64,000 nt of DNA, taken from the NCBI GenBank assembly GCA_902771095.1, contig CACXVH010000001.1:12197-76196 (forward strand), in the 5' to 3' direction. Below the pieces are notes generated by a model. The model did no database searches. It worked only from the letters and a program-made list of their open reading frames with translations, and was not told the origin of the DNA. Below, in pieces: positions 1,542 through 61,796 of this stretch. The DNA is from an uncultured Pseudomonadota bacterium (GTDB taxonomy: Bacteria; Pseudomonadota; Alphaproteobacteria; Rs-D84). Numbering within the stretch: position 1 is the first letter of the stretch; each line of letters starts with the position of its first letter. A program made the position numbers and the translations under genes.

Positions 1542-2318
1542 ATGGTAAAAAATAAAAAGATAGTAAAACAAAAATTGCGTGCGGTTAAAAAGGATAAACA
1601 CGCATATGGTTTGTTGAAGTTATTACAGGCCACGGGACTTTTCCGTTGGGAACGTCCATCCACTAAATCCGAAGAAGTTTTAAATATTTTAACACATGGA
1701 ATAGGGATTGGTCTTGCCATGGCGGGATTGTGTTTATTGGTTGGCTGGGCTGTGTATTATCATAATGTTTGGGCGATTGTTGCATGCTCTATATTTGGGG
1801 TGACGATGTTTACGCTTTATTTTGGTTCAACCATGTGTCATGCAACAATTGGTGACAGGTGTGAATGTTTTTTCGAAGTGTGGGATTCAATCGCTATTTA
1901 TGCGCTGATTGCTGGGACTTATACACCATTTTTGTTGGTAAATCTAAATCGATGTGGACATACTGCATTGGGATGGACAATGTTTGGGATTCTTTGGGCG
2001 GTTGTTATTTTTGGCGCTGTTATGAAGATATCCAGTCCACATAAACAGCCAAAATGGATGGTTGCGCTTTATTTAATTATGGGCTGGGCGCTGCTTTTCA
2101 TATTGCCTGCGATGATAGAAACTATATCAGCGCGTGGAATGTGGTTCGTTTTGGCGGGTGGTTTATCTTATTCAATTGGTGTAATCTTTTATTTATGGCG
2201 GCGTCTTAAATTTGCACATGCACTTTGGCATTTGTTCGTAATTGGGGGTAGTGTGTGTTTCTTTTTCGCAGTGCTTTATGGGTCAATAATTGACTTTGCA
2301 CAAAAGTGTATAAGATAG
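1542..2318 (+). CDS. Hemolysin-III / PAQR family 7-TM membrane protein
   Basis: 258 aa with about 7 predicted TM helices. N-terminal EEVLNILTHGIG motif resembles the Hly-III family signature (ExxNxxTHxxG). The first ~40 residues are basic and may precede the true start. Confidence 0.7.
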   Translation: MVKNKKIVKQKLRAVKKDKHAYGLLKLLQATGLFRWERPSTKSEEVLNILTHGIGIGLAMAGLCLLVGWAVYYHNVWAIVACSIFGVTMFTLYFGSTMCHATIGDRCECFFEVWDSIAIYALIAGTYTPFLLVNLNRCGHTALGWTMFGILWAVVIFGAVMKISSPHKQPKWMVALYLIMGWALLFILPAMIETISARGMWFVLAGGLSYSIGVIFYLWRRLKFAHALWHLFVIGGSVCFFFAVLYGSIIDFAQKCIR

Positions 2319-2343
2319 AAAAACCGCCGTATGGCAGTTTTTT

Positions 2344-3669
2344 TTAATCAAATGGATTTGCGTCTTTTTTATATTCAATTATTATCGGTAAATGTTCCAG
2401 ATGCAGGGCATTTGCAATTCCACGGCGCAGATATCGTGTATAAGATTCTGGGATATCAGATGCGCCACCAACATTGATTGTGAATTTAATTGGGTGATGC
2501 CCCGTTTGGCGTGCAAACTTAATCTTCATCGGTCGTTTAAGGCGCGACATTGGTGGTTGACGGTCCGCAACCAATTTTTCAACAATTCTGTTAATCAAGC
2601 TGGTTGGGGTGTCTGTTTTTGAAATATCCCATTGTTCATAAATTCTTTTAAATAAATTTTGAACACCGGTTCCTTTTTCCGCAGATATCGCCAAAATCAT
2701 CGGCTTTATAATCTGATGAAAAGAATTAGTAAATTGATGTTTTAATTTTAATAATTTTTCATCCCGCTCTAATGGCTCAACCAAATCCCATTTATTAAGT
2801 GCAACACATAAAATTTTCCCCGCGTCATATACGCGCGCCGCAATTGATAATGCCTGGTTTTCAATGTTTTTTGTGGCATCGACTATTAAAATTACAATGT
2901 CCGATTTTTCAATTGCGTCCAATGATTTTAATGCAGACAAAGTTTCCACATCATCTGTCACACCCGCTTTGCGCCGCAGTCCCGCCGTATCCATTAATAT
3001 GATATCGCGACCATAAAAGTGTGTTGGTATTTTCACAGTATCGCGTGTGATGCCCGGGGCATCCATAACAATTTGTCGATTTTCACCCAAAACACGATTT
3101 ACAAATGTAGATTTTCCAACATTAGGTTGACCCAAAACTGCAATTTTTATTTTTGAATCATTTTCGCTGTATACGGCAGATTCTGTCGTATACAGCCCGT
3201 CAATAAATTCGTAAATTGTATCAAATCCGCGTTTGTGTTCTGCAGATATCAAAATTGGTTCACCAAATCCGAGTTTGTAAAAATCGTGTATATCAGCCAA
3301 TCTTTTTGTTGATTCAGATTTGTTGATTAAAAGTAGGGCAGGTGCCTTTGATTTTTTATGAACCAATTTTGCCCATTCAATATCCATTGGTGAAAGTCCC
3401 ACGCGACCATCGACAACAAATAAAATTGCATCCGCCGTTTCAATCGCATTTATTGCCATATCGGTTGAATTATGTGCGATACCTGTTTTTGCATTTTCAA
3501 GACCCGCGGTGTCAAATACCACCCATGGGCGATTTGGCATATTGCCAGAAATTGTATCGCGTGTGACACCAGGGCGGTCGTGAACCAGCGCGTCCCGCGA
3601 ATTAGTCAAGCCATTAAACAATGTCGATTTACCAGTATTTGGGCGACCGACAATAACCAATTTTTTCAT
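2344..3669 (-). CDS. der: Ribosome-associated GTPase Der (EngA)
   Basis: Two tandem GTPase domains (GRPNTGKSTLFN ... DTAG and GQPNVGKSTFVN ... DTAG) followed by a KH-like C-terminus. The 602-aa ORF in the track is spurious upstream read-through. The true start is the internal MKKLVIVG (ATG ending at 3669) or MEKNMKK (ATG ending at 3681). Confidence 0.9.
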   Translation of the reverse strand: MKKLVIVGRPNTGKSTLFNGLTNSRDALVHDRPGVTRDTISGNMPNRPWVVFDTAGLENAKTGIAHNSTDMAINAIETADAILFVVDGRVGLSPMDIEWAKLVHKKSKAPALLLINKSESTKRLADIHDFYKLGFGEPILISAEHKRGFDTIYEFIDGLYTTESAVYSENDSKIKIAVLGQPNVGKSTFVNRVLGENRQIVMDAPGITRDTVKIPTHFYGRDIILMDTAGLRRKAGVTDDVETLSALKSLDAIEKSDIVILIVDATKNIENQALSIAARVYDAGKILCVALNKWDLVEPLERDEKLLKLKHQFTNSFHQIIKPMILAISAEKGTGVQNLFKRIYEQWDISKTDTPTSLINRIVEKLVADRQPPMSRLKRPMKIKFARQTGHHPIKFTINVGGASDIPESYTRYLRRGIANALHLEHLPIIIEYKKDANPFD

Positions 3670-3739
3670 ATTTTTTTCCATTGATTTTTTATAATTATAA
3701 AGCAAAAATATAAATAAGCAAATATCCAGGGGGCGAAAA

Positions 3740-4381
3740 ATGAAATTAAGAAGAAATCCTAGAACTTTGAAACCGGCAAAACCCACAAAAATTAAAAAAA
3801 GGGGTTGGTTGGCTAAATTGACAGATATATTTTTTAAGCCCAAATACTTTTTTTCCCGCATTGTCGCAGACGGCAAAATGGAAGATGCGATATTAAAGGC
3901 ATTTCTTTGGGGCTTGGTTGGTGGAATAGTTGTTTTGATTTTGAATCTGGTTCGTGGGGATGCGTTTACAATATTTTCTTTGTTCCGTACATTGATTGGT
4001 TTCCCTGTGTTGGCGGTTATTTTATTGTTCGTGTTTGCTGGGTTGATGATGTTGGTATCCGAAGTGACAGGTGGCGATAGGGACTGGGAAATCGCGGTCA
4101 AAGGGATTGCATCTATGTTTTTTATATATCCACTTGCATTGATTTTGAACACATTGGCATTTAATTGTACATCTATGTGGTTGATAAGTGTGATTGTCGA
4201 TTCATATATGCTATTTTTGCTTTATAATATCGCAGTGTATTGTCTGCATGGGAAAAAGGTTAGTGTCCTTTTTGTTTTGATGGTATGCGCAATATTTTTG
4301 GCATGCCTTTATATGTCAGATTATCGAAATGTTTGGTTCATGGCAAAGAACATCCCCGCTACAATGACATGTTTGGGGTAA
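3740..4381 (+). CDS. Hypothetical polytopic membrane protein (Yip1-like topology)
   Basis: 213 aa. Basic N-terminal tail, then about 5 hydrophobic helices. No catalytic motif recognised. Confidence 0.4.
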   Translation: MKLRRNPRTLKPAKPTKIKKRGWLAKLTDIFFKPKYFFSRIVADGKMEDAILKAFLWGLVGGIVVLILNLVRGDAFTIFSLFRTLIGFPVLAVILLFVFAGLMMLVSEVTGGDRDWEIAVKGIASMFFIYPLALILNTLAFNCTSMWLISVIVDSYMLFLLYNIAVYCLHGKKVSVLFVLMVCAIFLACLYMSDYRNVWFMAKNIPATMTCLG

Positions 4382-4395
4382 TTGACTAATTTAGT

Positions 4396-4424
4396 AAAAA
4401 AACCGGCATTCGCCGGTTTTTTGT
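4396..4424. terminator. Bidirectional rho-independent terminator
   Basis: Perfect hairpin ACCGGC-ATTC-GCCGGT followed by a T6 run. It sits between convergent genes (3740..4381 + and 4438..5043 -). Confidence 0.8.
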
Positions 4425-4437
4425 TGATATATTTTCT

Positions 4438-5043
4438 TTACCATGTTGGGGCGTGGGTGCCTTCTTTGATAATTGGCTGTTCATCTTCCCAAACTGAAAG
4501 TCCTGTTTTCAAATCCGTTAATGTTAATTGTAAATAATATTCTACGCGTGTATCAACAGATGAAAACCAGCCCGAATCCAATTTTAAATTTCTTTGCAAC
4601 ATTTTTCCAGATAATGACATGTTCGGTGCAACCAATGTTCCGGTCTTTGCAATGGTTTCTTGGTCGTATTCTGCGTTTGTGCGCATGCTGCGCATTTTTT
4701 CTGTTGTTGTATCTTCGCCAGAGAAATTAGTTGCAATTTGTGCTGTGCCAGATTTCAACAATGTAGTTCTGATTTTTTTAATCAAAACATCTGTATCAAA
4801 TCTTTGTTGGGTATCGTTCACAATCGGACCCATCGCAATTACTGGATTTTGAACCCGACGAAAAGCATTGCTTTTTAACATCGATTCGGTCATCGTTTCT
4901 GCGGTCTTGGTCCAATCGCGATATTCCAATTCCATCACATCTTGCATTGCGGCAACTTCTTTTTCGTTGTTTAAATCAACAACGCGTGTTCCGCCGCATG
5001 CGCAAAGTGTAAGCATCAATGCAACAGGTATCATTTTTTTCAT
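4438..5043 (-). CDS. Lipoprotein, LpoB-like (possible penicillin-binding protein activator)
   Basis: 201 aa. Signal peptide with lipobox LTLCAC|GG. Size and the central conserved block (AMGPIVNDTQQ) resemble LpoB-family lipoproteins. Last gene of an operon with the two upstream genes (12 bp gap). Confidence 0.45.
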   Translation of the reverse strand: MKKMIPVALMLTLCACGGTRVVDLNNEKEVAAMQDVMELEYRDWTKTAETMTESMLKSNAFRRVQNPVIAMGPIVNDTQQRFDTDVLIKKIRTTLLKSGTAQIATNFSGEDTTTEKMRSMRTNAEYDQETIAKTGTLVAPNMSLSGKMLQRNLKLDSGWFSSVDTRVEYYLQLTLTDLKTGLSVWEDEQPIIKEGTHAPTW

Positions 5044-5055
5044 ATTTTTTCTCCT

Positions 5056-6237
5056 TTATTTCAGGTTGATTTGTTTGTTGTCTGTTATTCTACCATTTAT
5101 TATTCGTGTGTAAATTAAATTATTTTTCAAAGTGCCTGATTCGTTTTTACGAATTACATATATATATTTTGGTAATGTTGCCCATGTCCGAACATCTGTG
5201 TTTGATGAAGCAACTGTATAAATAGATGAAAGTATCCCAAGTATTGGTGCAGAATCACTGCCGGAATTGTACATGGTTGCTTGTAATGTTGCTTTGCTGG
5301 CCGCAGAAGTAAAAGAACGCAACACTTCATTTGTTTGATATTCGCGGTATTCTGTCATAAACATTGCGTCTACATTAGCCAGCAGTTGTGCATTTTGTGG
5401 TGCGCCAAAATCGTCATTCAAGTAAGGTTCAGAAAAAGAAAAATACACCATACCGATATTTGGTAAAAATATTCCTGCATTTTGTTCGCGAAGACGCGGC
5501 GCAAAACCAGAATCAATAAATTGCCAGGTTGTGTTTTTAGGTGCGATTCTTTTTTGCGCCATTTCAAGGTCTTGTTTAATAAAAGTGTTTTCTGGCATCA
5601 TACCATTTGCGCGTTTAAGGTATGTTATCGCGTTATCAAAATCACCATCGTTCAAAAAATATATTCCAGATAGATACATCAATGCTGGATTCATAATATC
5701 AGTGAACGCCACCCAATCGGCTGTGTTTTTATCAATAATTTCATTTAATTCCGAATTTTCCGAAATTTTATTTTTGTTTTCTTCTATCATTTTTTTGTAT
5801 TCAATCGACATATTCTGCTGACGCGCATAAGATTGATTTATAACCACGCGCGCGTTTGCCCAATCGGACAGCGCCAACAAATCCCATATCTGATAATAAG
5901 ATACAAAAAGCGAATCCATCATATACGGCTTATAAGAATTAACACCGCCACCAAGTAAAAGTCCGGTGGCTTCGCGGGAAATCGATGAAGAAGTTTCGCT
6001 TAGATTTCTTTTATTAAATTCTTCAAATTCTGCATCGCTTTCTTTGTATTTATCGGCATGAAATAGGGCGATACCATTTATTAACAAATCAAGATTGTTT
6101 TGTTCTGTCACATTTTTTTCAGATGCTTCAAAATTACCATTTGCAAAATTGTTTTGAATATTATTTAAATACGATTCTGTTGTTGATGCACATGCACCAA
6201 GAAATAAAAACAAACAAAAGCAAATTATTTTACGCAT
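5056..6237 (-). CDS. Hypothetical lipoprotein
   Basis: 393 aa. Lipoprotein signal LFLGAC|AS. Predicted soluble helical/TPR-like domain with no recognised motif. The gap to the upstream T4CP gene is 3 bp. Confidence 0.4.
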   Translation of the reverse strand: MRKIICFCLFLFLGACASTTESYLNNIQNNFANGNFEASEKNVTEQNNLDLLINGIALFHADKYKESDAEFEEFNKRNLSETSSSISREATGLLLGGGVNSYKPYMMDSLFVSYYQIWDLLALSDWANARVVINQSYARQQNMSIEYKKMIEENKNKISENSELNEIIDKNTADWVAFTDIMNPALMYLSGIYFLNDGDFDNAITYLKRANGMMPENTFIKQDLEMAQKRIAPKNTTWQFIDSGFAPRLREQNAGIFLPNIGMVYFSFSEPYLNDDFGAPQNAQLLANVDAMFMTEYREYQTNEVLRSFTSAASKATLQATMYNSGSDSAPILGILSSIYTVASSNTDVRTWATLPKYIYVIRKNESGTLKNNLIYTRIINGRITDNKQINLK

Positions 6238-6240
6238 ATT

Positions 6241-8511
6241 TTAATGCAATGGTTCCAAGATTTTTATTTCATTAGTATTTGGATTCAAAACGCATGGTGT
6301 CCCAGAATAACCCATAATTGCGTGATGAGATGGAATTAAAAATTCTGGTAATGGCGATGCTTCACCCATTGTAACTTTTTCGTACAATTTTTTCTCGATA
6401 TCTGTTTTGTTCAAGAACCATCTTTCTTGATCTGCTTCAATTGGACGATGATACCAACCCTGGTAAATAACGAGTTGTTTACCAGTTTTTAATCGCATTA
6501 TTTCGTATTCGCTGAATATGGGTTCTTCTTTTGGTTTTTTGACTTCTTTACCATCTTCACCTTTTTCAATTTTTTCTGTTTTTTTCATGCCCATCATTTC
6601 AGAAAATCTTTTTGCTGTTTCTGGGTCGTTTTGTCGCAAAACAATTTTTGCCGCGGTTGTAGATATAATCGTATCAGCCGCATCGGCACCGTATTTTTCA
6701 CGAATTTGATGGATATCTTGACCAATTATTAAATAAGACACATTACATCCACGCCCCAAATCTGGTCCCTGGATAACAGCATCCAGTTTTTGCATTTTTG
6801 GCATTTCATCCAACACGAATAACACAGGGCAAGGTCCCATTTTTATTCCGTCTATGGTTTGATTAATATTGTGTGCCAATAAATAACTGGACATCAATTC
6901 AATAAATATTGCGGTAATCGGATTTAATGCCTGGGCATCAACCATATTGATTGATAAGTAAACAGTTACAGGTTTAAATTGACCATCCCTTGGATCAAGC
7001 ATTCCGCGTAAATCAGAAAAATGAAAATCAGAGTGAGATGTTCTGTTTCGAACAGCGGCATTACGGAATATTGCCAAACCTTCAACCATTGTTGAAAGTA
7101 TAGAACCACGTTCTTTATCTGGTGTGTTCGCCAATTGTGTTAATTCAGAAACCGCACGATGTGCGTATGCATAACGGCGCGCTTCTTCGACAGCATTTAA
7201 TAAAACATCTTTCATCGGGTCTGCCATCATAACCATTTGATCGCCCTGGCGTCTGCGTTCTTCCATTTCTTCGGCAATCGCAACCTGGCTTGATGTCAAC
7301 CAATCAAGTATCATTGCAAAAGATGCCTCACGCCCATGCCATGAATCAGGTATGTTTGCCCATGTCCCAACATGAACATAATTCGTTGTGTTTAATTCGC
7401 CGCGTTGCAACATTGAATAGGCAGCATATGCATTTGGATCGTTCATCATTGATAAATAATAATCGCCCAAAAGTGCGGCATCATCCTTGCTTAGTGTGCC
7501 ACTGTTTATGCGGGAATAGAAATAATCGTCTGCCTTGGCGCGTTCTATCTTTGATACGATAAAATTTACCAATCCTGATAATCCGGCGCGTCCAGTATTC
7601 GCCCAGTGTGGGTCTGCATTTGCGCCCTTGCTGTCTGGAACCAAAACCTTGGCCATAGAATCAATATACAAATCGCGCTGTTCCGGATTATAAGGAAGAT
7701 GTTCTGGTGATAATGGATTCCATGATGGATAATATATCCCGCGTGCCGGGTCATCTTGCCCCGCCCAATTCATAATAAACACAGGTCCCACCGTCGAACG
7801 ATACCCAGATGTCAACTGTTTTAATTCTGGTTTTGGGTCATTAATAATCATTGAAACTGTATCGCAATCAAGAATTGTTGGTATTACAACACCGGCGGTT
7901 TTACCAGTTCCTGGAGGTGCCACACACAAAGTAGATAATGCTTCATCAAACATCAATGGTTTGTTTTCACCTTTGTATTTAAAGTATCCCAATACCATCA
8001 TAAAACCATTGAAAAGCCCTTCTTTGTTTTTAAAGTTTGTTCCCATCTTTTTTATATCATCAGCATTTGCCTTGCGCGCAGATTTTTCATCATAGTTATC
8101 TTTGCCGGCAGGATTAAATTCTGATTTTAATGTATCGTCTGCCAAGAAATAATATACAATTACAGGTATCAGTGGTGTCACACATGCAAAATCTGGGTTA
8201 TGAACAGTCCGTGATAACCAATACGGAATTTCCGCGATAACAGACATCCCCAATGTTGAAAACATATTTTTTATATACAGCCAAACCCAATGTGCAGATG
8301 CGGGGCCCCATCCATAACGCCACACATGTTCAACCGCAAAAGATAATCCAAAAGCAAAGGCGCATATCAACCACACCCCGATATTCCATCGGATGTTCCA
8401 AAATTTGCGCGCCACAGGTGCCTGTTCGTGTTCTTTGTATTTTGTTGAATCAAAGATACTTAAACCCTTGCCTGAACCACTGCCTGAGAAAAGGTTGAAC
8501 TTTATTTCCAT
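6241..8511 (-). CDS. Type IV secretion coupling protein, VirD4/TraG family (T4CP)
   Basis: 756 aa from the internal start MEIKF (the track ORF extends to 8580). N-terminal TM helices. Walker A VAPPGTGKTAGVVIPTILD matches the TraG/VirD4 pattern (APTRSGKGVGxVIPxLL). Walker B-like VLFVLDEMP and the LIIGQD motif are present. Length is typical of T4CPs. Confidence 0.7.
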   Translation of the reverse strand: MEIKFNLFSGSGSGKGLSIFDSTKYKEHEQAPVARKFWNIRWNIGVWLICAFAFGLSFAVEHVWRYGWGPASAHWVWLYIKNMFSTLGMSVIAEIPYWLSRTVHNPDFACVTPLIPVIVYYFLADDTLKSEFNPAGKDNYDEKSARKANADDIKKMGTNFKNKEGLFNGFMMVLGYFKYKGENKPLMFDEALSTLCVAPPGTGKTAGVVIPTILDCDTVSMIINDPKPELKQLTSGYRSTVGPVFIMNWAGQDDPARGIYYPSWNPLSPEHLPYNPEQRDLYIDSMAKVLVPDSKGANADPHWANTGRAGLSGLVNFIVSKIERAKADDYFYSRINSGTLSKDDAALLGDYYLSMMNDPNAYAAYSMLQRGELNTTNYVHVGTWANIPDSWHGREASFAMILDWLTSSQVAIAEEMEERRRQGDQMVMMADPMKDVLLNAVEEARRYAYAHRAVSELTQLANTPDKERGSILSTMVEGLAIFRNAAVRNRTSHSDFHFSDLRGMLDPRDGQFKPVTVYLSINMVDAQALNPITAIFIELMSSYLLAHNINQTIDGIKMGPCPVLFVLDEMPKMQKLDAVIQGPDLGRGCNVSYLIIGQDIHQIREKYGADAADTIISTTAAKIVLRQNDPETAKRFSEMMGMKKTEKIEKGEDGKEVKKPKEEPIFSEYEIMRLKTGKQLVIYQGWYHRPIEADQERWFLNKTDIEKKLYEKVTMGEASPLPEFLIPSHHAIMGYSGTPCVLNPNTNEIKILEPLH

Positions 8512-8564
8512 GGTTGCTATTATATCACAAAAATAGAGATTTTTATAATATAAAAGATTAAAAA

Positions 8565-9224
8565 ATGCAAAATGTGCCAAGAATATATTTGAACGAAAAT
8601 TTGGAATCTGGAAAAAGTTTTCCGATTGATAAAGATGTTGTTCATTATCTGCGTCGTGTAATGCGGCGGGATAATTGTTTGGTCTTTAATAAAGGCATAG
8701 AATATACCGCCATACTAAGTGATGATAACAAAAGTATAATTATTGGTGAAAAAACGAATCGAATTGATCCATCCAATGATATTGTTTTTTATTTTGCACC
8801 AATTAAGAAAATAGATGAAATGTTAAATATGGTGACACAAATGGGGGTTGCGGTATTACAACCTGTGATAACCGAACGTACAGTTGCCAATCATATAAAT
8901 TGGGTGCGTCAGAAAAAAATTATTGTTGAAGCATCAGAACAATCGAATCGCAACAGTATCCCAGAATTAAGAGAACCAATTAAATTCGTTGATTTAGATT
9001 TAAAAAATTTAATTGTTGCAGATGAACGTTTTGCACACGAATTAAAAGTAGAAAAAAAACAAATAAAAACGAATCGCATTTTTGTTGGCCCCGAAGGGGG
9101 CTTTTCCCCGAAAGAATTTGAAAAAATGGATGTGGCAGGGGTTTGTAGTTTGTCTTTGGGTAAAACTATTTTGCGTGCCGAAGTGGCGGCTGTGGTTGCG
9201 ATATCAAAGGTGTTAAATAAATGA
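8565..9224 (+). CDS. rsmE: 16S rRNA (uracil1498-N3)-methyltransferase RsmE
   Basis: 219 aa. N-terminal PRIYL motif and C-terminal GPEGGFS ... ILR-AE-A block are characteristic of RsmE (SPOUT family). Confidence 0.85.
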   Translation: MQNVPRIYLNENLESGKSFPIDKDVVHYLRRVMRRDNCLVFNKGIEYTAILSDDNKSIIIGEKTNRIDPSNDIVFYFAPIKKIDEMLNMVTQMGVAVLQPVITERTVANHINWVRQKKIIVEASEQSNRNSIPELREPIKFVDLDLKNLIVADERFAHELKVEKKQIKTNRIFVGPEGGFSPKEFEKMDVAGVCSLSLGKTILRAEVAAVVAISKVLNK

Positions 9225-9919
9225 ATATCAGGTTGGCTAAATTTATTGCAGATAGTGGTGTTGCTTCACGGCGCATGGCAGAAGATTTAATTAAATCTGG
9301 TCGGGTGTCTGTTGACGATAAAGTGATAGATACACCTGTGTTTTTTGTTAATGGAAATGAAAAAATTTGTGTCGATGGAAAAATAATAAAAAAAGAATCG
9401 GGAACAAAATTGTATATATTTCATAAACCGATAAACACTGTGACTACAACGCGTGACCCCCAAAATCGAAGGACTATATATGATGTCCTGGCTAAACGAT
9501 ACAGAAATTTAAAATATATTGGTCGTCTTGATTATAAAACTACGGGACTTTTATTACTAACTAATGATGGCGATTTTGCGCGTAAAATGTCTTTGCCAGA
9601 AAATCAAATACCAAGAACTTATATTGCAAAGGTAAGTAGTTTTACCCAAAACGGTTTGGATGCTGCGCGTCGCGGTGTTGTTGTTGATGGAATTAAATAT
9701 CTTCCAATGAAAATAGAAGTAATAAGTCAACATGATTTAAAGATAACGGTGGTCGAAGGCAAAAAAAACGAAATCAGAATCGTTTTGAAACATGTTGGTT
9801 CGCCTGTGATTAAATTACATCGTGTGAAATATGGACCTGTAAAGTTGGGAAATTTGGAACCTGGAAAAATTTTAGAAGTGGATAAGAAAACTATTGACCT
9901 GATTTCCAAAAATTTCTAG
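9221..9919 (+). CDS. Ribosomal pseudouridine synthase with S4 domain (RsuA/RluB/RluF family)
   Basis: 232 aa. N-terminal S4 RNA-binding motif (RLAKFIADSGVASRR) and catalytic-Asp motif GRLDYKTTGLLLLTNDG. Start overlaps the rsmE stop (ATGA). Confidence 0.85.
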   Translation: MNIRLAKFIADSGVASRRMAEDLIKSGRVSVDDKVIDTPVFFVNGNEKICVDGKIIKKESGTKLYIFHKPINTVTTTRDPQNRRTIYDVLAKRYRNLKYIGRLDYKTTGLLLLTNDGDFARKMSLPENQIPRTYIAKVSSFTQNGLDAARRGVVVDGIKYLPMKIEVISQHDLKITVVEGKKNEIRIVLKHVGSPVIKLHRVKYGPVKLGNLEPGKILEVDKKTIDLISKNF

Positions 9920-9949: not shown

Positions 9950-10909
9950 ATGAAAAAAATAAAAACTACTAGAAATGTCAAGGTAAAGAAGGTTGTAACC
10001 AAGGGTTCAACTTGCCAGAATGTTATGTGGTCTTGGGCTATATATGTTTATTGGTTTATAATTTTGTTCTTTATCGCGGCTACTTTTTACATTATTGGTC
10101 GTGGTCATGAATTTTTAAGCCCGACAAATAGAAAATTCGTTGTTTCAGAAGAAGTTTTGCAACAATCTCAGGACTATGTTGATGCAGCCAAAGAAAAAAT
10201 AATCGCAGGCGATATAGAGGCGGCAATTGTTGATTTGGATGCAGCGATTGATGCTAATTCAAATGCAAATGTTTATATCTTGCGTGGTGAAGCATATATG
10301 CAAATGGGTGATTATCAAAAAGCGCTAAATGATTTTGATGCCGCACTAGATGTTGATGGTATGAATGCGGTTGCTTTTTATGATAGGGCTTTGTTGAATA
10401 TGCGCCTTGAAAATTATGAAGCGGCGTTGACAGATGTAAACAATGCTTTGGCGGCACAATCTATGAAACCGATGGATGTATTATCGATGCGTGATTTATA
10501 TGCAAAACGCGGTCAATTGAATTTATGGATGAAAAATTGGCAGGGTGCAATTGCTGATTATACCAATTCATTGGCGCGCGCCGAAGGAAGTGTATCTGCG
10601 GATGTTTATGCAGAAAGGGCAGAGGCATACACAGCAATGGGTGAATATGAAAATGCGATTAACGATTATACTTCGGCTGTGCGTGTGATTTCTGAACAAA
10701 TTCAGGCAGAACCAACACAAGAAGGACGCGAATCGCAATCAAGCAATGCAATGTCCTATTTTGAAAAATCTGCTGCACTGAATTTGCAATTGGGACGCAA
10801 TGCATTGGCAAAAAATGATTTGGAATCTGCATATGCTATTGCTGTTGCGTTGAATGATACGGAAAGTATGAACAGAATCCAAAATTTAATAAATGGGTTG
10901 AACAACTAA
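9950..10909 (+). CDS. TPR-repeat protein with N-terminal membrane anchor
   Basis: 319 aa. One TM helix, then repeated 34-residue blocks (A..Y.RG.AY...GDY.KAL.DF..AL). Confidence 0.6.
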   Translation: MKKIKTTRNVKVKKVVTKGSTCQNVMWSWAIYVYWFIILFFIAATFYIIGRGHEFLSPTNRKFVVSEEVLQQSQDYVDAAKEKIIAGDIEAAIVDLDAAIDANSNANVYILRGEAYMQMGDYQKALNDFDAALDVDGMNAVAFYDRALLNMRLENYEAALTDVNNALAAQSMKPMDVLSMRDLYAKRGQLNLWMKNWQGAIADYTNSLARAEGSVSADVYAERAEAYTAMGEYENAINDYTSAVRVISEQIQAEPTQEGRESQSSNAMSYFEKSAALNLQLGRNALAKNDLESAYAIAVALNDTESMNRIQNLINGLNN

Positions 10910-14203: not shown

Positions 14204-17200
14204 ATGAGAAACATCGTCAAAATACTTAGTTTATTGTCAATAATTGCCGTAATTCCGGCATCTTTTGCGGCTACTTCGCGTGTCAGTGTGACAAGTAAGG
14301 CATCGCCGCGTTTGCCGTCTATTGCGACCCGGTTGGTGTCTGGAACGGTGACAGGAACAACCACAACTTCGTCTACGGCTGCATATTATGGCGACAGCGA
14401 ATGTATTGAAAAATATACCGACTGTATCAAGGCAGATGATGTTTGTGGTTCTGATATGCAAGAATGTACGACAAATGTTTTGTTCCACGGACAAATGGCA
14501 AATTGTTTAAGTGTTTTGTATCAATGCTCTTCATCTGGTATTAACGCATTGTTTGGAACAACTGCGATAAACGCGTTGTCTAATGTTGCGGAATCGCATA
14601 CAATACCATCTGCGACCCGCAGTGGCGCGACAGAGGTTGTTGTCGATAGATATACATATCCGGCAAATGGTTCTGTATTGGGTCAATTGATTATCGGTGC
14701 CGGTATTACAAATAAATTAACAACCGAACAATGTGTCCGTCGTTATACAAATTGTTTGCAACGCGATGATATTTGTGGTGCTGATTTTGAATTGTGCACA
14801 TCGGCCAAGACATTTAAGAAGCAGGCATTGCTTTGTGATTCGACATTACAACGTTGCCAAGAAACCGGTAAAACACAGTTATTTGGTTCTGTTGCGAACG
14901 CAAATAATTTAACATATGCTGGTGATTCCAGAATTGGCACTTTGGTTGCCGAAGGGGCATCCACAGCGGCATTGAACGCGGTTAAGACCTGTCAAAAGGT
15001 AACAGATAACTGTTTGGTTAACGCGTGTGCAAAAAATCCATTAAGTTGTGTCGAAGGGACCAGCTTGGCATCAATCGACGCAGCCAATATTATTGCCGAA
15101 GGAACTGGTGCTTTGACAACTTCCCAGGTTATGCATGATGGTGTTGAAACAGCCAGTGCTTCGGATGTTCGTAAATTGTTAAAGACCGCGTGTTTGGAAA
15201 CAATCGGTTCGAACAGATATTGCCATATGACATATCGTGAAAAAGTTCCTTCTGACCGTGAATTGGGAGATCCAGATTTACAAGAAGAAGTATTTTCATT
15301 GGCTTATTCTGCACGTAAAAGTTATGCAAATACCAAGATTCAAGAAGCAATGAAAAAATTCGATACCAAGGCAAAGAATTCTTGTGTTGAAACAATCAAA
15401 GAATGTGCAATGCGTTCTTGCGGTGGGGGACTTGGTTCTGTGTGTTATACAAGGTCTAAATCTGGTGATGGTGTGCATGTGAACGATACCAGAACTTATG
15501 GTGATATTTTGTCTGGGTGTTCTGCGATTGTAAATGCTGATGCAAATTGTATCTATGCTGCGACATCTGCCGGAACAGATGGATACACATATACATATTA
15601 TGATGAAGATGGTTCAACATTTAGTACTTTGTTCCCATCTTATAATGAATCCGTATCTGATCCGATTGGTGCGGTTGCGACATTGAATTCTATACTCTCT
15701 ACATCTTATAATCCTGCGGCGATTGAAAATATGAAAAAACAATGTCAAACGATTGCTCTTTCTTGTGTAAAGGCCATGTGCGGTAAAGAATATGTTAATT
15801 GCTATCGCAGCAGAACAGATATTGTTTCTGGAACTTATGATACTGGTAATGCGAGATTGGATCGTAGCATGAATAAGATGGGCGGTGTCCTGGATTACAA
15901 TATTGTTATCGGTTTGTGTATGAATACGGTGAAAACATCATCTGTATGTGAAGAGCATTTGAAGATAGCAATTGCGGATCAATGGCCAGATGATAGAAGT
16001 GATACAACTTCATGGAATGGGTACACATCTGTTCGTGAAGCATGGCGTGGTGCGAATTCAACAGAAGTCGCAGCATACGAAGGTAAAGGTATCGTTGTTG
16101 CTTGTGCTGCTTCAAGTATTCAACAACTTGCTTCAACAGTAGCGGCTTTGGTCGGTGGAGAAGATGCAGCAGATTGTACAGGCACTATGGAACCGCTTGT
16201 TAACAGCGAAGGAATGACATATTGTGATCAGTCCGTGATCGATTCAGATACCGGGTGTATATATGATCAACCAGTTTACCAATCACAAACGGAATATTTG
16301 TTGACTAATGCTGGTACATCTTTGTTCCAAACATTGTTAGCGGATGTTGAAAAAGAAGTTCAGGCGATGTACAATGCCAAATTAAACAAAGAGCAACGTG
16401 TTTGTATGGCTAATAATAATGGTGGAATTATGGGTAACAAAGAAAGTGGTTCTACATTTTTGTGGGTAAAGTTGAGAAATAGCAAGGTACCAAAGAACTA
16501 TGTTTCGAAAGGTTTAACCACAAAACAATTCGTTGAATCAAATGATTTGTATGGTTCGTTCTGTCGTGCAAGAATTACTGTGCAATCTGACGACAAAGAT
16601 ATCCAAGATTTGTTGAAAAATAATTCTGTGGCATACTTTGCGGTTGGTGATTCATTTACCTGTGGTTCTTGGATAAGCGATGCTGATTTGCGCAAGATTT
16701 CGGATACAGTTGGTAACCGTGAATTGTGCAAACAGGGTTATGGTCAATGGGTTGATGGCGAATGTAAGGGCAGCAAATTATCAACCAAAGAGAAGATTGC
16801 TTATGCCTGGGGCACAGTCGCACCTGCGTTGGCTGGAACAGGAATTGGTTTGGGGTTGACTGAAAGTGGTTTACTTGGGGGATGGATGAATAGTGCTGAT
16901 TCTAAATTAAATGATGAGGCGACGAGAGGGAGAAGCAGAAACAGTTGTATAAATTATGCTAATTCGGCAAATACCGCATCTGATTTAAGCTTGTGTGAAA
17001 GTTATTTAAATTCTGCTGAGACATTGTGTGAAGAAGTCGGTGGTAATAGTAATCTTTGTTCACAATCGATACAAGGTAACAATGATGAAACAAAGTTGAA
17101 AGATTGTAAAAATAAAGCATTGATTGTCAAAGATGAATGTACATCGGCATATAAATCAAATATGAAAACAAATACGGCGGCACGTGTCACGATTCCAATT

Positions 17201-17389
17201 GTTACAGGGTTTGCTGCTGGTGGTTTGGGTGCTGGTATAACTGCTTCGGTTATTAAACAGAACAAAGAAAATATTAAAAATGAAGCGGCACAACAATGGA
17301 TGGATGAAATCGGTGAACATATCCAATGCTATATTGGCACCGAAGAATTGGGAACATACGGCGATGTCGTAAGTATCGAATTAGATTAA
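14204..17389 (+). CDS. Large secreted cysteine-rich repeat protein with C-terminal glycine-zipper/TM anchor
   Basis: 1061 aa. Sec signal peptide (AVIPASFA|AT). At least two tandem internal repeats of about 110 aa with spaced Cys (ECIEKYTDCIKADDVCGSDMQECT.. / QCVRRYTNCLQRDDICGADFELCT..). C-terminal hydrophobic Gly-rich segments (GTGIGLGLTESGLLGG; IPIVTGFAAGGLGAGITASVI) and a short tail. No known domain recognised. Confidence 0.5.
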   Translation: MRNIVKILSLLSIIAVIPASFAATSRVSVTSKASPRLPSIATRLVSGTVTGTTTTSSTAAYYGDSECIEKYTDCIKADDVCGSDMQECTTNVLFHGQMANCLSVLYQCSSSGINALFGTTAINALSNVAESHTIPSATRSGATEVVVDRYTYPANGSVLGQLIIGAGITNKLTTEQCVRRYTNCLQRDDICGADFELCTSAKTFKKQALLCDSTLQRCQETGKTQLFGSVANANNLTYAGDSRIGTLVAEGASTAALNAVKTCQKVTDNCLVNACAKNPLSCVEGTSLASIDAANIIAEGTGALTTSQVMHDGVETASASDVRKLLKTACLETIGSNRYCHMTYREKVPSDRELGDPDLQEEVFSLAYSARKSYANTKIQEAMKKFDTKAKNSCVETIKECAMRSCGGGLGSVCYTRSKSGDGVHVNDTRTYGDILSGCSAIVNADANCIYAATSAGTDGYTYTYYDEDGSTFSTLFPSYNESVSDPIGAVATLNSILSTSYNPAAIENMKKQCQTIALSCVKAMCGKEYVNCYRSRTDIVSGTYDTGNARLDRSMNKMGGVLDYNIVIGLCMNTVKTSSVCEEHLKIAIADQWPDDRSDTTSWNGYTSVREAWRGANSTEVAAYEGKGIVVACAASSIQQLASTVAALVGGEDAADCTGTMEPLVNSEGMTYCDQSVIDSDTGCIYDQPVYQSQTEYLLTNAGTSLFQTLLADVEKEVQAMYNAKLNKEQRVCMANNNGGIMGNKESGSTFLWVKLRNSKVPKNYVSKGLTTKQFVESNDLYGSFCRARITVQSDDKDIQDLLKNNSVAYFAVGDSFTCGSWISDADLRKISDTVGNRELCKQGYGQWVDGECKGSKLSTKEKIAYAWGTVAPALAGTGIGLGLTESGLLGGWMNSADSKLNDEATRGRSRNSCINYANSANTASDLSLCESYLNSAETLCEEVGGNSNLCSQSIQGNNDETKLKDCKNKALIVKDECTSAYKSNMKTNTAARVTIPIVTGFAAGGLGAGITASVIKQNKENIKNEAAQQWMDEIGEHIQCYIGTEELGTYGDVVSIELD

Positions 17390-19189: not shown

Positions 19190-20053
19190 TTATAAATCCT
19201 TTATTCCATTATGTGCCAATGGATGTGCGCTTTCCACTGTGTCTTTTAATTTTTCTGGTAAAACATGAGTGTATATTTGTGTTGTGGAAATATCTTCGTG
19301 TCCCAGCATCGTCTGTATCACGCGTAAATTCGCCCCGCCTGCCAATAAATGTGATGCAAAAGAATGACGCAGAACGTGTGGCGAAACGCGTGATGGTTCA
19401 ATACCCGCCAATACAGCGCACTTTTTTAATATCTTGAAAAAGCCATCACGGGTTATATGTCCGGTTTGCGAATTTGATGGAAAGACATATTTCGAATCGT
19501 TATCGCCACGAAGTTCTAGCCATTTGTGTAATGCATGTTGCGCCGCTTCGTGCATGGGGACCAATCTTTCTTTGGCGCCTTTGCCATGTATCAATAATTT
19601 ATCGCCCAAATTTGCAGAAAGTGGTAATTCGCATAATTCAGATACGCGCAGTCCAGATGCATACAATAATTCCAGCATACATTTTAATCGAACCGATGTT
19701 TTTATATCCCCAGATGAAGATATCAATAATTCTATTTCTTCGGGTGATAAATATTTAGGTAGTGTGCGCCCGCGTTTTGGTAATTCCAAATTAGCAGTTG
19801 GATTTTTTGTTATGATTTTTTCCAACATTAAAAATTTGTAAAATGTGCGAAGTGCGCTGGCTTTGCGTGAAATAGATGATGGTTTATCTGGCAAATGTGA
19901 TAAATAATTTTGGATGTCATCAGCAGTTGCGCTTAATAAGTCGCCGATTTCATCTTCTGCATGATGCAAGTCAGATGCATACGCGCTTAGTGTCTTTTGA
20001 CTGCGACCCTTTTCTGCGGACAATGCCTCTAAAAATATTTCTATGTATTTCAT
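19190..20053 (-). CDS. xerD: Tyrosine site-specific recombinase XerD/XerC
   Basis: 287 aa. Catalytic R..HxxR..Y signature (LRHSFASHLL; IYTHV). N-terminal core-binding domain. Confidence 0.8.
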   Translation of the reverse strand: MKYIEIFLEALSAEKGRSQKTLSAYASDLHHAEDEIGDLLSATADDIQNYLSHLPDKPSSISRKASALRTFYKFLMLEKIITKNPTANLELPKRGRTLPKYLSPEEIELLISSSGDIKTSVRLKCMLELLYASGLRVSELCELPLSANLGDKLLIHGKGAKERLVPMHEAAQHALHKWLELRGDNDSKYVFPSNSQTGHITRDGFFKILKKCAVLAGIEPSRVSPHVLRHSFASHLLAGGANLRVIQTMLGHEDISTTQIYTHVLPEKLKDTVESAHPLAHNGIKDL

Positions 20054-59241: not shown

Positions 59242-60129
59242 ATGTCCTGTAAGAATTGTTTTTTTGCTGTGATGGTCGGGTGTTTTTCATGGTCTGCTTT
59301 TGCCGAAATGCCCCAGGTTGTAACTTCTGAGGTTTTTGGTGATTCTCATCAGGAAGTGACAGAATACGTCCAAGAAGATTATGTTGAACCAGTTAGGGAA
59401 GAAGTGCCTGTGTGGCCATTGCCGGGGTCTGAGGCAGATGTTGAAATCGTTTGTGACGAAACAACTGGTTGTGGCGGTGAAGAAAAGATTGTCAACAGGA
59501 TTGGTTCCGGATTGATTATTGAAAACAATATTAATACTGTTGGGACAGGGTGGTCTGGTGGTCCAAATATTTCAAATGGCTATATGATACCCGAAGGTTT
59601 TGACTATGAATGTGCAAATGGTGCGGAAATGCCGTTAATGCGTCGTGAAATGATGGAAGATGATGGTGGTTCTGTGTTGGCTGTATCGCGCAGTGCAAGA
59701 AAAACTTGTGGTATGGCGGCAAATGCAGATTCTTATGCTGTGTTTGCACAACGCGCTGGATTTGCACCGGAAAAAACTTGTAATTCGGTAAACGGTATTG
59801 AAAATGGTGGTGTCGCTACAGAGGTTAGTGTTAACGGTTATATCGAAGAAGAAATCAATGACCCTGTTCAAGACCAGGTTCGTTCGTGGGTCGTTGCAGA
59901 TGGTCAAACATTACGCGAAGTTTTGCAATCTTGGTGTGATAAAGCGGGCTGGGATTTGGTCTGGACAACTGCGCGTGAATACCCGATTGAAGCAAGTGCT
60001 GTGTTCAAAGGCCGTTTTATGGATGTCGCTTCTGCTTTGGTTCGTAATTTTGAACGCGCAACACCAATTCCATATGCAAAATTTTACAAAGGTAATCGTG
60101 TAGTGGTCGTTTCAACTTCGGAAGAATAA
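59242..60129 (+). CDS. Secreted TcpQ/PilL-like protein (type IVb pilus / conjugative-pilus secretin partner family)
   Basis: 295 aa. Signal peptide (SWSAFA|EM). The C-terminal approximately 90 aa (WVVADGQTLREVLQSWCDKAGWDLVWTT ... FKGRFMDVASALV) match the W..G.TLR..L..W....GW.L.W pattern I recall for the TcpQ/PilL family. The N-terminal half is acidic/Gly-rich with Cys. Confidence 0.45.
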   Translation: MSCKNCFFAVMVGCFSWSAFAEMPQVVTSEVFGDSHQEVTEYVQEDYVEPVREEVPVWPLPGSEADVEIVCDETTGCGGEEKIVNRIGSGLIIENNINTVGTGWSGGPNISNGYMIPEGFDYECANGAEMPLMRREMMEDDGGSVLAVSRSARKTCGMAANADSYAVFAQRAGFAPEKTCNSVNGIENGGVATEVSVNGYIEEEINDPVQDQVRSWVVADGQTLREVLQSWCDKAGWDLVWTTAREYPIEASAVFKGRFMDVASALVRNFERATPIPYAKFYKGNRVVVVSTSEE

Positions 60130-60164
60130 ATTGCAGAAATATAGAAAGAGGGAAAGGGGAAAAC

Positions 60165-61796
60165 ATGAAAATGCGTTTAAATATATTCTTGGTTGGGTTG
60201 TTTTTTAGTGTGGTGTTGTCTGGGTGCACATTGCATGAATCAGCCAAAGTGTCCGCAGAAGTGGACCAAAATTTTGTCAACGCGTATGAGGCCTTTGAAA
60301 TGGCAAAAAATCCCCGTGCCAAGGTTTATGATGGTGATACTGTTTCTATGTCCGAAGGTGTTTGGTTGGGTAATAAATCTACACTATTGGAACACAAGAA
60401 TAGTTTGCCATCAAAATTTGAAACAGACACAGGTATTACTATATTGTTAAATGAACCTGTGACTTTACAGGTTTTGGCAAACGACATTAATTCTATTACT
60501 GGTATCCCGGTTAAAATAGACAGTCAGGTTGATAGTGAAAAATTAAGAAAGACCGTTGATGTTGCGTATACTGGAAAACTATCTGGTTTGCTTTCCCAGA
60601 TTGCGACAGATTTAGATTTGTTGTGGTATTATGACAAAGATTCAATCGTGTTTTATGAAACAGAAACAAGAACTTATACATTATATGCGCTGGGAACAGA
60701 TGTGTCTTATCAATCGTCTGTCCAAACAGATAGCGGTAATCAGGTATCATTAGAATCTACATTAAAAGAATGGGACGAAGTAGAAGCGACAATCAATTCT
60801 ATTATAAACAATTCAAAAAATGCTCAATTTACTGTATCGCGCAGTTTGGGAACAATAACCGTAACTGCTTCACCTTCGGTGTTGGCGCGTGTTAGTGATT
60901 ATATTGCGAAACAGAATAAACGACTTTCACAATTGGTAACGATTGATGTAAAAGTGTTACAGGTATCTTTATCTAATGAATCTGCGTTTGGTTTGAATTT
61001 AGCGGCGGCGATAAATTCTGCGTCTGGTTTAAATTTGGTTGCCAATCCAAAGAATAATTTGGCATCCACAGAAACATCTTCTATGAATATCGCGGTTTTG
61101 TCTAATGCAGTATCTGCTTTGACTGGGGCGACACATATTGATGCATCTGGTAATGTTGTCGAAGGTGCTTATACAAATGACCAAATCAATAATGGTTCAA
61201 TGGCACGAATCGCCGGAACAAATGCTTTGATTGAGGCATTGGCAAAGCAGGGTAAGGTGTCTTTGGTGACCAATGTTGGTGTGACAACGCGTAATAATCG
61301 TGTTGCGCCTGTGACGAATACAAAAACTACTGGATATATTAAACGTTTTGAATCGCGAACATTTACGACTGTGGAATCAAGTACAGTTGACCAAGACGAT
61401 TTGGAAACAGGATTTTCGATGCAATTGTTGCCGAATGTTTTGGAAAATGGCAAGATTTTGTTGCTGTTCAAAATGTCTGTGCGTGAATTGTTAAAGATGT
61501 CAACTCAGACAATTGGTGCGGTGACTTTGCAGTTGCCAGAGGTTGAAGAACGTTCGTTCATGCAAGAAGTTATTATGGAGTCCGGTCAGATGTTGGTCGT
61601 GTCTGGATTTGAAAAGCAAAAGAACAACGATACAAGATACGGTTTGGGTGATGCGGACTTTATGGCGTTGTCTGGGTCTCGTGATACGGCGGCTTCGCGT
61701 GAAGTGTTGGTTGTTATCTTGACACCGCAGGTTTTGGTTAGCCCGATGGATGCTGAACGCAGTATCCAACAACACTGGGGTACCCCTTTGAATTAA
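60165..61796 (+). CDS. Lipoprotein secretin (type IVb-pilus-type, PilN/TcpC/BfpB-like)
   Basis: 543 aa. Lipobox VLSGC|T. Central N-domain-like repeats. C-terminal secretin-domain pattern GQMLVVSGFEKQ ... YGLGDADFMALSGSRDTAASREVLVVILTPQVL (compare GG ... vP.LGdIP.lG.LF ... ELliFitP). Confidence 0.6.
   Translation: MKMRLNIFLVGLFFSVVLSGCTLHESAKVSAEVDQNFVNAYEAFEMAKNPRAKVYDGDTVSMSEGVWLGNKSTLLEHKNSLPSKFETDTGITILLNEPVTLQVLANDINSITGIPVKIDSQVDSEKLRKTVDVAYTGKLSGLLSQIATDLDLLWYYDKDSIVFYETETRTYTLYALGTDVSYQSSVQTDSGNQVSLESTLKEWDEVEATINSIINNSKNAQFTVSRSLGTITVTASPSVLARVSDYIAKQNKRLSQLVTIDVKVLQVSLSNESAFGLNLAAAINSASGLNLVANPKNNLASTETSSMNIAVLSNAVSALTGATHIDASGNVVEGAYTNDQINNGSMARIAGTNALIEALAKQGKVSLVTNVGVTTRNNRVAPVTNTKTTGYIKRFESRTFTTVESSTVDQDDLETGFSMQLLPNVLENGKILLLFKMSVRELLKMSTQTIGAVTLQLPEVEERSFMQEVIMESGQMLVVSGFEKQKNNDTRYGLGDADFMALSGSRDTAASREVLVVILTPQVLVSPMDAERSIQQHWGTPLN

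Follow-up and report, generated by a model that had tools for sequence, protein, structure and literature searches.

Why would a gene for a type IV coupling protein (T4CP) stand by itself among housekeeping genes in a small bacterial genome? The question is raised by a 64,000-nucleotide stretch of an uncultured alphaproteobacterium (hereafter the window; GenBank assembly GCA_902771095.1, contig CACXVH010000001.1, positions 12,197 to 76,196), whose source lineage is Candidatus Enterousia of the order Rs-D84. The window encodes a virD4-like T4CP of 756 amino acids (aa), transcribed divergently from rsmE, which the initial annotation described as an intact orphan remote from any type IV secretion system (T4SS). 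Our analyses suggest that this protein is probably a coupling ATPase of the VirD4 type that belongs to a dispersed T4SS, one that is fixed in the chromosome and passed on vertically in Candidatus Enterousia. It would look orphaned because the T4SS genes of the clade are scattered in islets among housekeeping genes, with virD4 next to rsmE and virB3-virB4 next to ychF, a sufD-like gene, dnaG and topA.

Profile and fold both identify the window protein as a true T4CP, in a subfamily that has not been curated. It matches the T4SS-DNA_transf family (Pfam accession PF02534, E = 1.3e-52, 179.6 bits against a cutoff of 20.1) and, further, TraG-D_C (Pfam accession PF12696, 75 bits) and TrwB_AAD_bind (Pfam accession PF10412, 73.8 bits). 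The features first noted in the translated sequence are all present: two N-terminal hydrophobic (transmembrane) segments at residues 42-62 and 106-125 that enclose a putative periplasmic loop (63-105), a Walker A region (VAPPGTGKTAGVVIPTIL) with the P-loop APPGTGKT, whose K204 is invariant even in distant relatives, a Walker B motif (VLFVLDEMP) at 563-571 and an IGQD motif at 596. The protein also contains a clade-specific helical insert of ~60 aa at ~325-392, which is not found in the closest outgroup VirD4, and conservation is high over the full length, insert included. We place it in an uncurated subfamily because every curated NCBIfam T4CP model scored far below its cutoff (best NF045973, 135 bits versus 250; VirD4 PRK13897, 97.6 versus 728; TraG PRK13880, 116 versus 586).

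Structural comparisons separate the protein from other P-loop families. We searched with an AlphaFold2 model that was built from a 42-sequence alignment (predicted local distance difference test score, pLDDT, 84.5; predicted template-modelling score, pTM, 0.75). The best Foldseek match was Cag-beta (8DOL, 2e-18), followed by TrwB (1E9S, about 3e-12). HerA, VirB4 and DndH ranked behind these, at only 1e-5 to 1e-6, so that a choice between T4CPs and FtsK/HerA-type ATPases falls to the T4CPs. A profile of the T4CP family likewise matched Cag-beta in the PDB (7e-17), as well as TrwB and DotL, while a single-sequence phmmer search of the PDB returned no chain at E <= 0.01.

The T4CP gene is fixed in its clade. 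Homologues come from metagenome-assembled genomes (MAGs) that bear the label Candidatus Enterousia or Alphaproteobacteria and were obtained from rumen and from horse, sheep, chicken, mouse and human gut. Among the near-complete MAGs of the window's own clade are JAZROY01, whose T4CP is 94% identical, JBKSMS01, CACYHO01 (with a contig of 532 kb), CACZJK01 and DBYN01. In a collection with one genome per species, 277 stretches encode a T4CP relative, and we compared the loci of the best 80 of these 277, all of them gut or rumen MAGs. The T4CP is divergent from an rsmE-rluB-TPR (tetratricopeptide repeat) gene series in 80/80 of these species, as far as each contig extends. Its identity to the window protein is 67-94%, and rsmE and rluB of these loci do not exceed it. 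The ratio of nonsynonymous to synonymous substitution rates (dN/dS) against four relatives is 0.07-0.095 for the T4CP and 0.07-0.22 for rsmE and rluB. The T4CP is thus intact, under strong purifying selection and a core gene of the clade, in line with the retained function first argued from its uninterrupted reading frame.

Fixed synteny, conservation and low dN/dS together do not make the pattern of a mobile-element remnant. The idea that the locus derives from an integrated conjugative element and still serves DNA transfer is the least credible explanation that we considered. Consistent with it, the best plasmid matches to the T4CP are themselves T4CPs, mostly on plasmids typed as conjugative, at 31-36% identity. 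The chromosomal position is, however, identical in 80 species, the T4CP evolves at dN/dS values like those of housekeeping genes, and neither a relaxase or integrase gene nor a boundary repeat or an anomalous GC content marks the locus. The sole integrase-family gene (19190-20053) looks XerC/D-type and lies 10 kb from the T4CP. A conjugative T4CP would be recognized by a relaxase, an oriT or a mobile context; the scaffold encodes no relaxase family, and the gene stays at its fixed position.

The same isolation extends over the scaffold. In Pfam annotation computed beforehand for nearly all of the 79 kb scaffold, components of VirB, Trb and Dot systems are absent, as are relaxases. Apart from one exception, a TcpQ-secretin gene pair, the scaffold holds housekeeping genes only. 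The initial annotation had reported housekeeping surroundings and no T4SS component or relaxase in the window, and coordinates and Pfam annotation agree with it. Nor does a full T4SS cluster lie just outside the window, within the ~79 kb of the scaffold.

Relatives outside the clade reveal where the gene came from. We searched 1.84 billion cluster representatives exhaustively. The whole Enterousia clade makes up one 50% cluster among them, and beyond this cluster the search found T4CP relatives at 40-50% identity. The nearest T4SS-linked relative (P0281) is 42% identical to the window T4CP over 571 aa. It ends a canonical, chromosomal virB4...virB8-virB9-virB10-virB11-virD4 cluster in an alphaproteobacterial MAG (GCA_947457935.1, locus L087). 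We conclude that the Enterousia T4CP descends from a virB-linked virD4. Three outgroup T4CPs (P0121, P0270 and P0289) are, like that of the window, isolated amid housekeeping genes.

We identified further T4SS genes within the clade. The loci available for this search reach no further than 10 kb to each side of a match and comprise ~2 Mb of Enterousia-clade DNA from two genomic neighbourhoods. A tblastn search of all fetched DNA with the T4SS proteins of the L087 cluster gave one match, in an Enterousia-clade MAG (L082) with the TPR-rluB-rsmE/T4CP synteny. In this MAG a virB3-like gene and an 805-aa virB4 (together at 1701-4415) lie 5.6 kb from the T4CP on the same contig, and Pfam confirms both VirB3 (Pfam accession PF05101, 35.8 bits) and VirB4 (Pfam accessions PF03135 and PF27097). 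With the L082 VirB4 as query, a metagenome scan identified 22 contigs from gut or rumen, whose VirB4 is 69-92% identical to it. Their gene order is ychF, sufD-like, virB3, virB4 and a conserved open reading frame (ORF) of ~205 aa, with dnaG, topA, rodA and penicillin-binding protein (PBP) 2 on the flanks, and the Walker A and B motifs are intact in VirB4 of all 22.

Between the clade VirB4 and the corresponding protein of the L087 cluster, identity is 44%, a value nearly equal to the 42% of the T4CP, which fits co-inheritance of both genes. Since the clade carries a conserved virB3-virB4 elsewhere, and in L082 on the contig of the T4CP, the label 'orphan' is not supported as it stands; the other suggestion of the initial annotation, that the machinery is encoded elsewhere, is the better reading. 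The NCBI name for the clade VirB4 is 'hypothetical'. We attribute the fact that this T4SS was overlooked to that label and to the scattering of its genes.

The window's own genome probably has virB3-virB4 as well, judging from the clade and from composition. A neighbour-joining tree of the T4CP contains a basal branch, a clade that includes the window (clade B) and a third clade (clade C). One group of VirB4 contigs from rumen is of low GC (806 aa, GC 0.35-0.39, 77-80% identity to L082) and, as indirect evidence, resembles clade B in its habitat, its composition and its relative divergence. One contig of this group (L122) belongs to a series of assemblies from which MAGs of clade B were recovered too. 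The ORFs of the window and the virB4 loci have no genes in common. A homology search with the 238-aa C-terminus of the L087 VirB4 was uninformative, returning 16 short fragments and not the parent protein.

Upstream of virB3-virB4, mouse and human gut species encode a HipA/helix-turn-helix toxin-antitoxin pair, an N6/N4 DNA methylase and a DUF87-like ATPase (L113-L116, 109-7040). The region gives the impression of a small island of defence or mobile character; the genome is otherwise housekeeping only.

Downstream of the T4CP the window encodes two lipoproteins of 393 and 201 aa, both with a signal peptide and lipobox at the start (LGAC and LCAC, respectively; N-terminus of the 201-aa protein, MKKMIPVALMLTLCAC). 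The three genes are co-directional, with 3 bp between the T4CP stop and the 393-aa gene and 12 bp between the 393-aa and 201-aa genes, as initially reported. It is this spacing that suggests co-transcription in the window lineage, because a scan for promoter and terminator consensus sequences performed at chance (16 promoter-like sites versus 16.9 expected). The three-gene operon proposed at the outset agrees with the tight spacing in the window but is not supported as a conserved unit. Only about half of the related species have the 393-aa gene immediately after the T4CP, and the 201-aa gene travels together with the 393-aa gene. On the T4CP tree the adjacency occurs in the basal branch and in all of clade B and is patchy in clade C, most of which has the T4CP alone, followed by convergent infB-nusA. 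This distribution implies that the linkage is ancestral but dispensable.

The 201-aa protein belongs to the LpoB family (Pfam accession PF13036, 3.5e-32, 111.8 bits against a cutoff of 22.3; TIGR02722, 120.8 bits against a cutoff of 110.55), for which the initial annotation had proposed a search. A phmmer search of the PDB with this protein gave no sequence match at E <= 1. The cognate partner of an LpoB would be a class A PBP (PBP1B with a UB2H domain); the PBPs that turned up in the fetched DNA were of class B only. The 393-aa protein has no Pfam or NCBIfam match above cutoff. Its AlphaFold2 model (pTM 0.73) has a helical, TPR-like domain at the N-terminus and a beta-rich one at the C-terminus, and PDB fold matches are to generic TPR domains only (E >= 0.014). 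Its listed homologues are all unnamed proteins from the Enterousia clade, and its gene has a dN/dS of 0.07-0.14. An hhalign comparison of the 393-aa family with the lipoprotein inside the L087 T4SS cluster indicated no relationship (probability 2%).

In most close relatives a block of ~3.5 kb separates the LpoB-like gene from der (engA) and the gene for a 213-aa membrane protein (L006 14088-17560). The block contains a bamB-like gene (PQQ_2), a yfgM-like gene (TPR_21), a sigma-70-family factor (RpoH-like) and a 344-aa porin-like gene; the window lacks it at the corresponding position (4382-4437). The yfgM-bamB-der series is a classic envelope neighbourhood. Because of this bamB/yfgM/der context, and because the adjacency to the T4CP is repeatedly broken, the lipoprotein pair most likely represents cell-envelope proteins. 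The T4SS would not depend on them, and the pair is probably not specific to it. A role as outer-membrane parts of the T4SS is a minority possibility. The combination of a TPR and an LpoB-like protein may resemble the Campylobacter Cj0089-Cj0091 lipoprotein operon, a likeness that we do not rely on. Literature searches on COG3014/COG3417 gave nothing useful.

Several observations weigh against a dispersed T4SS in the window genome. First, no virB gene is annotated on the window's own ~79 kb scaffold. Second, the fetched clade loci contain no virB6, virB8, virB9, virB10 or virB11 homologue by tblastn with the L087 VirB8-11, an absence that says little because these loci cover just two neighbourhoods. 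Third, one relative (L072) has ychF and the sufD-like gene but no virB3-virB4 after them, which implies that the location of virB4, and possibly its presence, varies. Fourth, the ancestral T4CP-lipoprotein adjacency and the 3-bp gap leave room for a functional link. Finally, the precedent for such dispersal is the rvh T4SS of Rickettsia, whose vir genes form islets of an 'archipelago' that is inherited vertically (Gillespie et al. 2009, PMC2653234); there virD4 is attached to virB8-virB11, whereas the Enterousia virD4 is solitary beside rsmE and detached from virB11.

Some of these observations would suit a truly orphan, repurposed T4CP, with the T4SS lost in the window species and the ATPase serving a T4SS-independent membrane role, possibly together with the two lipoproteins. 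The scaffold free of virB genes, the relative that lacks virB3-virB4 at the usual place and the three isolated outgroup T4CPs all point in this direction. Against it, T4CP conservation is uniform across clades with and without a visible virB4, and VirB4 is equally conserved, with intact motifs, in the low-GC contigs from rumen, whose habitat and composition correspond to those of the window's clade. To our knowledge, no T4CP function independent of a T4SS has been established, and a literature search for 'orphan VirD4' found nothing relevant. We regard loss and repurposing as rather improbable.

Other observations would fit a minimised or hybrid machine that keeps a VirB3-VirB4-VirD4 ATPase core and in which lineage-specific envelope proteins replace the VirB6-B11 channel. 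The lack of virB6 and virB8-11 in any fetched clade locus, the ancestral adjacency of T4CP and lipoproteins with its 3-bp and 12-bp gaps, and a genome below 1 Mb are all consistent with such a reduction, as is the small protein encoded after virB4. This protein of ~205 aa overlaps the virB4 stop codon in all clade virB4 loci (L082 1701-5691; L113 9704-13748) and has no Pfam match above cutoff, the best being a weak one to DUF5740 (5e-5). A 219-aa membrane protein is often encoded next. Both proteins are candidates for unrecognised T4SS parts. Replacement of the channel nevertheless seems doubtful to us, and about as improbable as repurposing, since the fetched loci sample two neighbourhoods only, most of clade C has no lipoproteins beside the T4CP, the 393-aa protein is unlike the lipoprotein of the related T4SS cluster and the lipoproteins sit within an envelope neighbourhood. 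Candidate envelope parts for a hybrid machine would be the TPR and LpoB-like lipoproteins, the small post-virB4 ORFs or a type IVb secretin. That Enterousia combines a VirB3-VirB4-VirD4 core with envelope parts of a non-canonical kind, or that the T4CP of the window lineage works without any T4SS, is, in our judgement, unlikely.

The secretin of the window deserves separate consideration, as the initial annotation had linked it to the T4CP. We instead find that TcpQ and the secretin fit a type IVb pilus set. Related Enterousia-clade contigs encode PAP_PilO and a T2SSE ATPase next to lpxK-lpxC (L122 15676-19218), and type IVb-pilus-like genes thus also seem to be dispersed in clade genomes. A T4CP that works with this type IVb-pilus-like secretin system (59.2-61.8 kb) in DNA uptake or export is very improbable. 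Its attractions are the TcpQ and secretin genes in the window, the PilO and ATPase genes of related contigs, and dprA, which lies with dnaA just past the window end (L084). In addition, prepilin-like small ORFs (G|xxxxE and a hydrophobic stretch; N_methyl E = 0.017) adjoin two of the outgroup lone T4CPs (L085 9503-9958; L086 13437-13880). The secretin is, however, 51 kb from the T4CP without conserved linkage, a prepilin motif search found no prepilin gene in the window, and VirB3-VirB4 offers a canonical partner. We know of no precedent for a VirD4 that feeds a secretin.

A dispersed Enterousia T4SS could operate as follows. Its genes would be distributed as single genes or small islets amid housekeeping genes. 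The T4CP, by analogy with its family, would form a membrane-anchored hexameric ATPase that recruits substrates at the cytoplasmic face and passes them to a channel powered by VirB4. Because neither a relaxase nor an oriT was found, we favour protein effectors, which would be delivered to a partner or host cell. Such a system would serve the partner or host-cell interaction of a metabolically dependent bacterium with a genome below 1 Mb. For the window genome we infer both the complete channel and the type of substrate.

Table 1. Genes and regions of the window discussed here (positions are those of the window).
Feature	Position	Strand	Basis or remark
T4CP (virD4-like), 756 aa	6241-8511	-	ORF and Pfam
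TPR-like lipoprotein, 393 aa	5056-6237	-	ORF and lipobox LFLGAC
LpoB-family lipoprotein, 201 aa	4438-5043	-	PF13036, TIGR02722
T4CP/rsmE divergent intergenic region, 53 bp	8512-8564	.	presumed promoter region for both genes; role inferred
rsmE (16S rRNA methyltransferase)	8565-9224	+	PF04452, NCBIfam RsmE; synteny anchor, divergent from T4CP
rluB	9221-9919		synteny anchor with rsmE
TPR protein	9950-10909		synteny anchor with rsmE and rluB
TcpQ-domain protein and secretin, two-gene unit	59242-61796		TcpQ domain PF10671, 2.9e-18

The T4CP start in Table 1 reflects a choice. The mechanical ORF spans 6241-8580 and reaches a TTG at 8580, and initiation at the ATG at 8511 gives the 756-aa protein. 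We take this ATG as the start because homologues begin at the identical methionine (MAIKF/MAVKF).

Two further genes of the window lack recognizable relatives in Pfam. The 213-aa protein mentioned above (3740-4381, + strand) is a multi-pass membrane protein with no Pfam match; it is conserved across the clade, always as a divergent pair with der. A 1061-aa ORF (14204-17389, + strand) lies between tatA and lpxD and has no Pfam match even at E <= 1. It may encode a large lineage-specific envelope or surface protein.

Candidatus Enterousia is a species-rich uncultured lineage of the animal and human gut with genomes below 1 Mb. Comparative genomics of Rs-D84 describes genomes of 0.75-1.0 Mb that lack the tricarboxylic acid cycle, respiration and standard transporters, and proposes dependence on a partner (PMC12306168). 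In that paper the word 'secretion' occurs 0 times and no secretion system is mentioned. VirD4 and VirB4 are core genes in Enterousia, conserved above the neighbouring rRNA-modification genes and previously overlooked. The dispersed vir genes provide a concrete handle on how Enterousia interacts with a partner and extend the 'vir archipelago' architecture beyond Rickettsiales. For a lone T4CP amid housekeeping genes in a reduced alphaproteobacterial genome, a dispersed T4SS is a likelier explanation than an orphan.

Comparison with characterized proteins and systems places the window T4CP within familiar families. The VirD4 of the L087 cluster (P0281) has the same P-loop surroundings (LCVAPPGTGKT...TSGYRS) as the window T4CP, and its Walker B and IGQD motifs are the same too. 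The window T4CP differs from this relative in its ~60-aa insert, its N-terminal membrane region, its C-terminal tail and its position away from virB11. With Cag-beta (Helicobacter pylori Cag5, 8DOL) and TrwB (R388, 1E9R/1E9S) it shares a fold of nucleotide-binding and all-alpha domains (target-normalised TM-score 0.64-0.74, identity only 13-16%). TrwB is relaxosome-coupled, in contrast to the window T4CP, whose scaffold has no relaxase. The 201-aa protein is, like the PBP1B activator LpoB of Escherichia coli, an outer-membrane-type lipoprotein of ~200 aa in the same family; unlike it, the window protein has no pairwise similarity to solved LpoB chains and is paired with a clade-specific TPR lipoprotein.

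The closest parallel to the system as a whole is rvh. Apart from the detached virD4, the two differ in that virB6 paralogues follow the rvh virB4, whereas nothing recognisable follows the Enterousia virB4, and in that virB6 and virB8-11 are unseen in the fetched Enterousia loci. Enterousia is also a gut lineage of extracellular habitat. In both cases, however, chromosomal and vertically inherited P-type T4SS genes lie in islets amid the housekeeping genes of a reduced-genome alphaproteobacterium. Both have a virB3-virB4 islet and no relaxase, and both are presumed to deliver effectors to a host or partner. In these respects the Enterousia T4SS belongs to an established type, here in a lineage that has received little study.

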